Shown here: positions 1 to 219 of the stretch, in pieces
Numbering within the stretch: position 1 is the stretch's first letter
How the letters are laid out: the number at the start of each line of letters is the position of its first letter
From: Escherichia coli
GTDB taxonomy: Bacteria; Pseudomonadota; Gammaproteobacteria; Enterobacterales; Enterobacteriaceae
Reading direction: 5' to 3' (one strand)
DNA length: 219 nucleotides
Assembly: GCF_003334405.1 (NCBI RefSeq)
Contig: NZ_QOWM01000076.1
The notes under the pieces: model-generated
The model's database searches: none
What the model was told of the DNA's origin: nothing
The model's input: the letters and a program-made list of their open reading frames with translations, nothing else
Program-made: the position numbers and the translations under genes

Positions 1-1
1 G

Positions 2-77
2 TGGCGTCCCCTAGGGGATTCGAACCCCTGTTACCGCCGTGAAAGGGCGGTGTCCTGGGCCTCTAGACGAAGGGGAC
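2..77 (-). tRNA. tRNA-Glu (anticodon UUC), complete 76-nt gene with genomically encoded 3' CCA
   Basis: Reverse complement of 2-77 reads GTCCCCTTCGTCTAGAGGCCCAGGACACCGCCCTTTCACGGCGGTAACAGGGGTTCGAATCCCCTAGGGGACGCCA. It folds as a cloverleaf: 7-bp acceptor stem GTCCCCT/AGGGGAC, anticodon stem CCGCC/GGCGG around loop CUUUCAC (anticodon UUC, encoded as gaa at window 41-43), T-arm GGGG-TTCGAAT-CCCC, and terminal CCA (window 2-4). From memory this matches the E. coli tRNA-Glu found in rrn spacers (gltT/U/V/W family); which copy cannot be told from the sequence. Confidence 0.95.
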
Positions 78-162
78 GTATCAGTCTGCTTCGCAAGACG
101 CCTTGCTTTTCACTTTCTATCAGACAATCTGTGTGAGCACTGCAAAGAACGCTTCTTTAAGG
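78..162 (-). other. 16S-tRNA-Glu internal transcribed spacer (16S-proximal part of ITS1), part of the rrn primary transcript
   Basis: The 85 nt lie between the mature 16S 3' end and the tRNA-Glu 5' end. The transcript-sense sequence is CCTTAAAGAAGCGTTCTTTGCAGTGCTCACACAGATTGTCTGATAGAAAGTGAAAAGCAAGGCGTCTTGCGAAGCAGACTGATAC. Its start (CCTTAAAGAAGCG...GTGCTCACACAGATTGTCTGATAGAAAGTGAAAAGCAAGGCG) matches my recollection of the enterobacterial 16S 3'-flanking spacer. Boundaries are set by the adjacent RNA genes. Confidence 0.85.
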
Positions 163-219
163 TAAGGAGGTGATCCAACCGCAGGTTCCCCTACGGTTAC
201 CTTGTTACGACTTCACCCC
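163..219 (-). rRNA. rrs: 16S ribosomal RNA, 3'-terminal 57 nt (partial; gene continues beyond the window end)
   Basis: Reverse complement of 163-219 is GGGGTGAAGTCGTAACAAGGTAACCGTAGGGGAACCTGCGGTTGGATCACCTCCTTA, the universally conserved 3' terminus of bacterial 16S rRNA. It includes the anti-Shine-Dalgarno CCUCC (window 166-170 as ggagg on the + strand). The mature 3' end ...CCUCCUUA maps to window 163; the exact end may differ by a nucleotide or two between species. Confidence 0.97.

Follow-up and report, generated by a model that had tools for sequence, protein, structure and literature searches.

A 219-nucleotide piece of an Escherichia coli rRNA operon with the short tRNA-Glu spacer: near-identical copies at shifting loci and a most likely origin as a stand-alone assembly-graph contig

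The best-described relatives of the sequence considered here are the seven rrn operons of Escherichia coli K-12 MG1655, across all of which the ITS1 region was compared. A tRNA-Glu gene is found in four of the seven operons. Two of these, rrnC (rrsC-gltU) and rrnE (rrsE-gltV), belong to a short spacer class and are one base apart, whereas the ITS1 of rrnB and rrnG is 171 nt long, with 86 extra nucleotides. The remaining three operons (rrnA, rrnD, and rrnH) carry tRNA-Ile and tRNA-Ala in place of tRNA-Glu. The ITS1-Glu regions of other Enterobacteriaceae, including Salmonella, Citrobacter, Enterobacter, and Klebsiella, have the same gene order as the short E. coli class, with a highly similar 16S tail and tRNA-Glu.

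The window (the whole stretch of DNA that was analyzed, 219 nt) is an ordinary piece of an E. coli rRNA operon presented on its antisense strand and consists of the end of the 16S rRNA gene, a short spacer, and a tRNA-Glu gene. It is identical at 219 of 219 positions to K-12 rrnE (rrsE 3' end, ITS1, and gltV; NC_000913.3 4209632-4209850), in which the 16S gene, the 85-nt spacer, and tRNA-Glu follow in the same order and spacing between purH and yjaA flanks. No sequence difference separates the two, but the window carries no flanks, and a shared sequence does not by itself establish a shared locus. The rrnC operon is identical at 218 of 219 positions, differing by a G rather than an A at RNA position 104 (window 116), and these two matches place the window in the short ITS1-Glu class. 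In rrnB and rrnG, the 16S tail and tRNA-Glu are identical to those of the window and the spacer differs little over its first ~65 nt, but in addition to their greater spacer length they carry substitutions at RNA positions 72, 78, 102-103, and 112. Likewise, rrnA, rrnD, and rrnH have an identical 16S tail and share their initial ~44 nt of spacer with the window, diverging after RNA position ~101; rrnA matches the window exactly over RNA positions 1-77, and its first difference is at position 78 (window 142). The window thereby covers the part of the operon that is most variable between copies, and its ITS1 rules out the Ile/Ala-type and long-Glu-type operons, excluding five of the seven K-12 operons. 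Coordinates of the individual features are collected in Table 1.

Table 1. Features of the 219-nt window, with positions counted from its first letter
Feature	Position(s)	Strand	Evidence or remark
Distal spacer, first base downstream of tRNA-Glu	1..1	-	Alignment with K-12 operons
tRNA-Glu(UUC) gene, 76 nt	2..77	-	ARAGORN; Rfam RF00005; identical to K-12 gltV
Copy-class-specific core, 65 nt	78..142		Alignment of K-12 operons
ITS1 proximal part, 85-nt "short tRNA-Glu" class	78..162	-	Lies between both RNA genes; K-12 alignment
Copy-polymorphic site	116		Window T (RNA A104); K-12 rrnC C (RNA G)
16S RNase III processing stem, 3' strand (predicted)	116..157	-	RNA duplexfold, rrnE leader versus spacer
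Polymorphic site, between copies and between strains	148		Window A (RNA T72); most E. coli short spacers T (RNA A72)
16S rRNA 3'-terminal 57 nt	163..219	-	Rfam RF00177; annotated 16S in E. coli records
Anti-Shine-Dalgarno CCUCC of 16S rRNA	166..170	-	Direct sequence reading and Rfam alignment ...GGAUCACCUCCUUA
16S helix 45	176-199	-	Within 16S tail

Read along the minus strand, the window runs from the 16S tail (57 nt) through the 85-nt spacer to tRNA-Glu(UUC) with its CCA and ends one base later. The 16S tail matched the bacterial small-subunit rRNA family (RF00177, SSU_rRNA_bacteria) over model positions 1477-1533 of 1533 with 56.9 bits against a gathering score of 50 (E = 5.4e-16), a match that reaches the 3' end of the model and is truncated on its 5' side by the window edge. 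This tail is identical to that of K-12 rrsE and corresponds to E. coli 16S positions 1486-1542; window positions 186-189 are the GGAA loop of helix 45. The tRNA gene was recognized as a full-length tRNA (RF00005 at 77..5, 60.1 bits against a gathering score of 29, E = 5.6e-13, full model 1-71) and has a cloverleaf, a UUC anticodon (ttc in ARAGORN, window 41-43), and a complete acceptor stem with an encoded CCA at window 2-4. The preliminary description had placed the window entirely inside an rrn operon, and the Rfam and ARAGORN results, together with 219/219 identity to annotated E. coli chromosomes, agree with that placement. Many E. coli chromosomes are 100% identical to the window over 219 nt (E = 4e-110) and are annotated there as tRNA-Glu and 16S ribosomal RNA.

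Several other features that might be read from the window were rejected. The plus-strand GGAGG inside AAGGAGGTGATC (window 164-175) could be mistaken for a ribosome-binding site, but it is simply the complement of the anti-Shine-Dalgarno sequence at the 16S 3' end. Neither strand of the window contained an open reading frame longer than 44 amino acids, and coding potential was rejected, as the longest frame (44 amino acids) lies within the RNA genes. The only internal repeats in the window were the tRNA stems and chance matches of 8 to 10 nt. Rfam matches to mascRNA, Tymo_tRNA-like, and Plastid-psbI-rps4 fell below their gathering scores and overlapped the tRNA.

The spacer has the pairing capacity of a 16S processing stem. 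The 17S precursor has a 5' extension of 115 nt and a 3' extension of 33 nt, and its complementary ends constitute a substrate for RNase III (PMC3996153). When the spacer was paired with the rrnE leader using duplexfold, spacer positions +6 to +47 (window 157 to 116) paired with leader positions -89 to -131, and the resulting duplex had an energy of -80.4 kcal/mol, compared with -36.6 +/- 4.3 kcal/mol for 200 shuffled spacers. This extended complementarity, of the kind that marks an RNase III stem, brackets the known sites at -115 and +33, the latter being a cleavage after window position 130. In the pair map, leader -115 is matched with spacer +31 and leader -117 with spacer +33, both inside an unbroken run of 26 bp; this predicted pairing would give the 2-nt stagger that is expected of RNase III. 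Folded alone, the 85-nt spacer was not more stable than its shuffled versions (z = +1.23); a self-structured spacer RNA was rejected on this basis, the structure arising from pairing with the distant leader.

The window segment is transcribed within a single long pre-rRNA, in which the first ~47 nt of the spacer and the leader upstream of the 16S gene would form a helix that is cut by RNase III, so that the 17S precursor would keep 33 extra nucleotides at its 3' terminus. Release of the tRNA follows, through tRNA-processing nucleases (RNase P and 3' nucleases). The common T72A variant (window 148, spacer +15) converts a predicted U-A pair of the stem to an A/A mismatch, and no compensating leader change was seen for it in the operons compared, as leader position -100 remains an A in four of four.

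The ends of the window fall at positions that have a meaning in an assembly graph. On either side of the copy-class-specific core, the flanks (window 1-77 and 143-219) are exactly 77 nt long and are common to other operons; on the tRNA-Glu side, the window and the long Glu spacers come together again at RNA position 143 (window 77). A de Bruijn graph was built from the seven K-12 operons only, with the A/G bubble between rrnC and rrnE popped toward A. The k = 77 edge running through the short spacer of this graph, including its terminal vertices, reproduced the window base for base, while k values of 55, 99, and 127 gave edges of 175, 263, and 438 nt. The branch points thus coincide with the ends of the window, with overlaps of length k on both sides, as in a collapsed repeat. 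The rrnA-type branch (T72/A78), which is needed for the left boundary, was present in 2,788 of 5,426 genomes. Exact overlaps at k = 77 are typical of SPAdes-type assembly output. With both ends exactly 77 nt beyond the core, the window is most likely a complete stand-alone small contig, a SPAdes-style k = 77 edge that merges sister copies one base apart; we infer this from the boundaries alone and consider it well supported. The metagenome scan contained no 219-nt twin contig, and the four contigs with the core that it did return were longer.

The copy number of the sequence class was estimated across complete E. coli genomes by using short queries, with every 28-mer seed spanning diagnostic sites, and two genomes were resolved by hand. 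With the full window as the query, all 5,426 genomes matched; the median of 7 places per genome arises from the 16S tail, which every operon has. A more discriminating 36-mer (window 89-124), which includes A104 and the breakpoint between short and long spacers, was found at 16,995 places in 5,267 of the 5,426 genomes, with a median of 3 per genome and a range of 1 to 9; K-12 strains have one. The G104 version of this 36-mer was confined to 351 of the 5,426 genomes, mostly laboratory derivatives of K-12. A 42-mer across the short junction was present in 5,283 of the 5,426 genomes (median of 3 places), and the 16S-proximal variant T72/C78 was present in 2,466 genomes (median of 2 places). Among 5,433 matching records, with the ranking sampled at even steps, the best match to the window was exact in ~30%, had one mismatch in ~52%, and had two mismatches in ~15%.

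These counts agree with the earlier expectation of several near-identical copies per genome, for which the K-12 operons, with tRNA-Glu in four and a single base separating rrnC from rrnE, are an example, and they qualify what is meant by a copy. The class occurs two or more times per genome, and copies within one base of the window typically number three, yet sister copies are distinguishable over the 219 nt in both K-12 and the bovine strain E2863, where they differ by one base. The exact 219-nt string may be single copy, as it is in those two genomes, and the term multicopy strictly applies to copies differing by no more than one base and not to the exact string.

Comparisons between strains indicated that the loci occupied by this repeat family are not fixed. 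The exact 219-mer was found once per genome in both of the genomes that were resolved, at rrnE in K-12 and at rrnC in E2863, the latter operon being flanked by yieP and aspT-trpT-hdfR. E2863 also has more short-spacer copies (at least three) than K-12 (two). Two loci that have long spacers in K-12, rrnB and rrnG, hold short spacers in other strains; the rrnB locus of E2863 has a short spacer with A>T at window 148, and this one-base variant recurs in an ST131 strain (at rrnG) and in O157:H7 (at rrnE). It is also found in the short spacer of an E2863 operon with the head of rrnE and the tail of rrnD. The T72/C78 49-mer occurs once in the E2863 genome, which leaves rrnC as the only locus of the exact 219-mer there. 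In E2863 (NZ_AP018802.1; L016 5003-10259), the purH-side operon ends with 5S-tRNA-Thr-5S followed by yhdZYX, which is the tail of rrnD; a hybrid of this kind implies that a large inversion has occurred between rrnD and rrnE. Window position 148 varies between operons of E2863, between operons of K-12, and among strains.

As the loci differ from strain to strain, the window is not placeable without flanking sequence, which is what the preliminary description had maintained: the exact 219-mer alternates between rrnE and rrnC, and its one-base variants are spread over rrnG, rrnE, rrnB, and the rrnE/rrnD hybrid in the strains above. The suggestion that single-base differences may reflect heterogeneity between copies also held, at window 116 (rrnE versus rrnC of K-12) and at window 148 (within E2863 and K-12, and also between strains). 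An alternative is that the window can be assigned after all, to rrnE (rrsE-gltV) in a K-12-like genome, where its exact sequence is unique. In MG1655, rrnE is the only operon that matches at 219 of 219 positions, with rrnC off at window 116, the spacers of rrnB and rrnG at 171 nt, and rrnA, rrnD, and rrnH of the Ile/Ala type; K-12 records such as those of RP437 and JME64 have the A-variant 36-mer at one place, and the k = 77 edge was reproduced from the K-12 operon configuration. However, complete E. coli genomes of many lineages, ~30% of the total, contain the exact window, which lies at rrnC in E2863, and if the window is the product of a popped bubble, it represents rrnC and rrnE merged and not rrnE alone. 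Assignment to rrnE therefore appears rather unlikely. We have high confidence in the reading of the window as an E. coli rrn segment that occurs in one to nine near-identical copies per genome, cannot be placed, and is most likely a k = 77 stand-alone contig.

Chimeric assembly offers a different explanation, in which the window was drawn from a metagenome or metagenome-assembled genome contig that fused an E. coli rrn operon to foreign DNA. Contigs were scanned with a 101-nt IUPAC core of the window that tolerated common variants. Among species-representative genomes, one contig matched, the 49-kb JAHAYL010000010.1 ("MAG: Oxalobacter sp. MBin.057"), which holds the exact 219-mer (L006 12998-13216). 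The contig is a mosaic. Within L006 9676-13266, the E. coli-like part starts at ~10364 (23S position ~2440) and runs to the end of the contig, 107 nt into the 16S gene, with 11 differences from K-12 rrnE, whereas the last ~455 nt of its 23S gene are ~86% identical to E. coli (65 differences). Its 5S gene gave no alignment to K-12 rrnE by direct blastn, and a 4-kb sample of its 9.6-kb flank had no match in E. coli genomes. An assembler chimera with its junction in domain V of the 23S rRNA is the probable explanation. Just outside the window, between tRNA-Glu and the 23S gene, the same contig has an Rfam match to StyR-44 (L006 12813-12921, 124.9 bits); StyR-44 is a known feature of the enterobacterial ITS.

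The metagenome scan yielded comparable cases. One of the four contigs with the core (L017) is E. coli-like throughout, and the other three (L018 1-2109, L019 1-3775, and L020 8769-13494) switch abruptly from no more than 1% to 25 to 30% divergence, either near position 900 of the 16S gene or at the 23S 3' end. These three are chimeras between taxa that were joined in conserved rRNA, so that four of the five public metagenomic contigs with the spacer core are chimeric. Together with the coincidence of the window with a k = 77 graph edge, this is in keeping with the warning, given at the outset, that such regions are often collapsed or chimeric in short-read assemblies. As a source of the window itself, a contig of this kind is improbable. 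JAHAYL010000010.1 is the sole match for the core among species-representative genomes and is mosaic in the manner that this explanation calls for, but it continues past the window on both sides and leaves the 77-nt-symmetric ends of the window unexplained. Its status as the only match also carries little weight, as the same scan, unexpectedly, returned no Escherichia representative. This absence extended to Shigella representatives; that of Escherichia contrasts with the presence of the 36-nt core in ~97% of complete E. coli genomes, and it could reflect sequence variants, drafts that lack ITS1, or a scan that was not exhaustive.

A third possibility, that the window originates in a different enterobacterial species, or in a plasmid or phage bearing an rrn fragment, is very improbable. 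Plasmid- and phage-labeled records do contain the window at 99 to 100% identity, and the one exception outside Escherichia, a 728-kb "Salmonella enterica" plasmid record (NZ_LN868944.1), reached 99.1%. However, the plasmid and phage matches are mislabeled contigs of chromosome or rrn size, such as 655-kb and 4.8-Mb "plasmids," unannotated 5- to 7-kb "phages," and NZ_CP170379.1, which has the purH-hemE region. Most matches from other genera were far less similar than those from E. coli: ITS1-Glu of other Enterobacteriaceae typically shows 92 to 94.5% identity over the window, with the differences located in the spacer, and the identities were ~91 to 94.5% for Salmonella, 94.5% for Citrobacter, 94.1% for Enterobacter, 92.7% for Klebsiella, and 87% for Dickeya. 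Since other genera lie mostly well below the identity of E. coli, the source of the window is E. coli in the broad sense.

Database records that contain the window or its core included several with unusual rrn content, some of which look like artifacts of the rrn repeats. Unannotated phage and plasmid records of 1.6 to 8 kb, including OR844775.1, OR850364.1, and CP088871.1, are just rrn contigs, and one "Staphylococcus phage" record contains an enterobacterial 16S-tRNA-Glu segment at 94% identity. The 294-kb "plasmid unnamed01" NZ_CP170379.1 (L013 1-14919) begins inside a 23S gene, has the short spacer at three places, and carries purH, purD, zraRS, hupA, and hemE; it is an rrn-bounded chromosomal segment whose circular form is due to the assembler or to recombination between rrn operons. 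In strain C8 (NZ_CP010125.1; L014 7914-9617), the rrnH locus (gmhB to dkgB) has tRNA-Glu instead of tRNA-Ile/Ala, and the short-Glu 36-mer is found at 7 places, covering all seven operons, as it is at 7 places in strain S21 (NZ_CP010230.1). Strain C8 would consequently have no spacer tRNA-Ile(GAU) or tRNA-Ala(UGC), and the rrn copies were probably filled in from a single consensus. The "complete" record of Nissle 1917 (NZ_CP007799.1) has 20 matches to the window along with the annotation note "rRNA prediction is too short" and appears to hold fragmented or duplicated rrn pieces.

It is exceedingly unlikely that the E. coli-type segment (16S 3' end, ITS1, tRNA-Glu, and most of the 23S gene) truly resides in a nonenterobacterial genome such as that of the Oxalobacter MAG, having been acquired by recombination inside conserved rRNA sequence and not by assembler joining; if it did, the window would be evidence of rRNA operon transfer between phyla or classes.

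The observation made in the preliminary description was therefore confirmed and its interpretation supported, with the refinement that the window is informative on species (E. coli), spacer class, and strain subset and is uninformative on locus. Nothing in the window is new, as it is textbook E. coli rrn sequence that was already known. Its significance is practical. Because the bases at window positions 116 and 148 differ among the operons of a single genome, a fragment of this kind is unfit for strain SNP calls, and it is equally unsuitable for locus placement and for the taxonomic assignment of bins. Contigs of rrn size are deposited as plasmids and phages, and the 77 + 65 + 77 layout provides a quick flag with which assembly-graph edges can be told from genomic loci.
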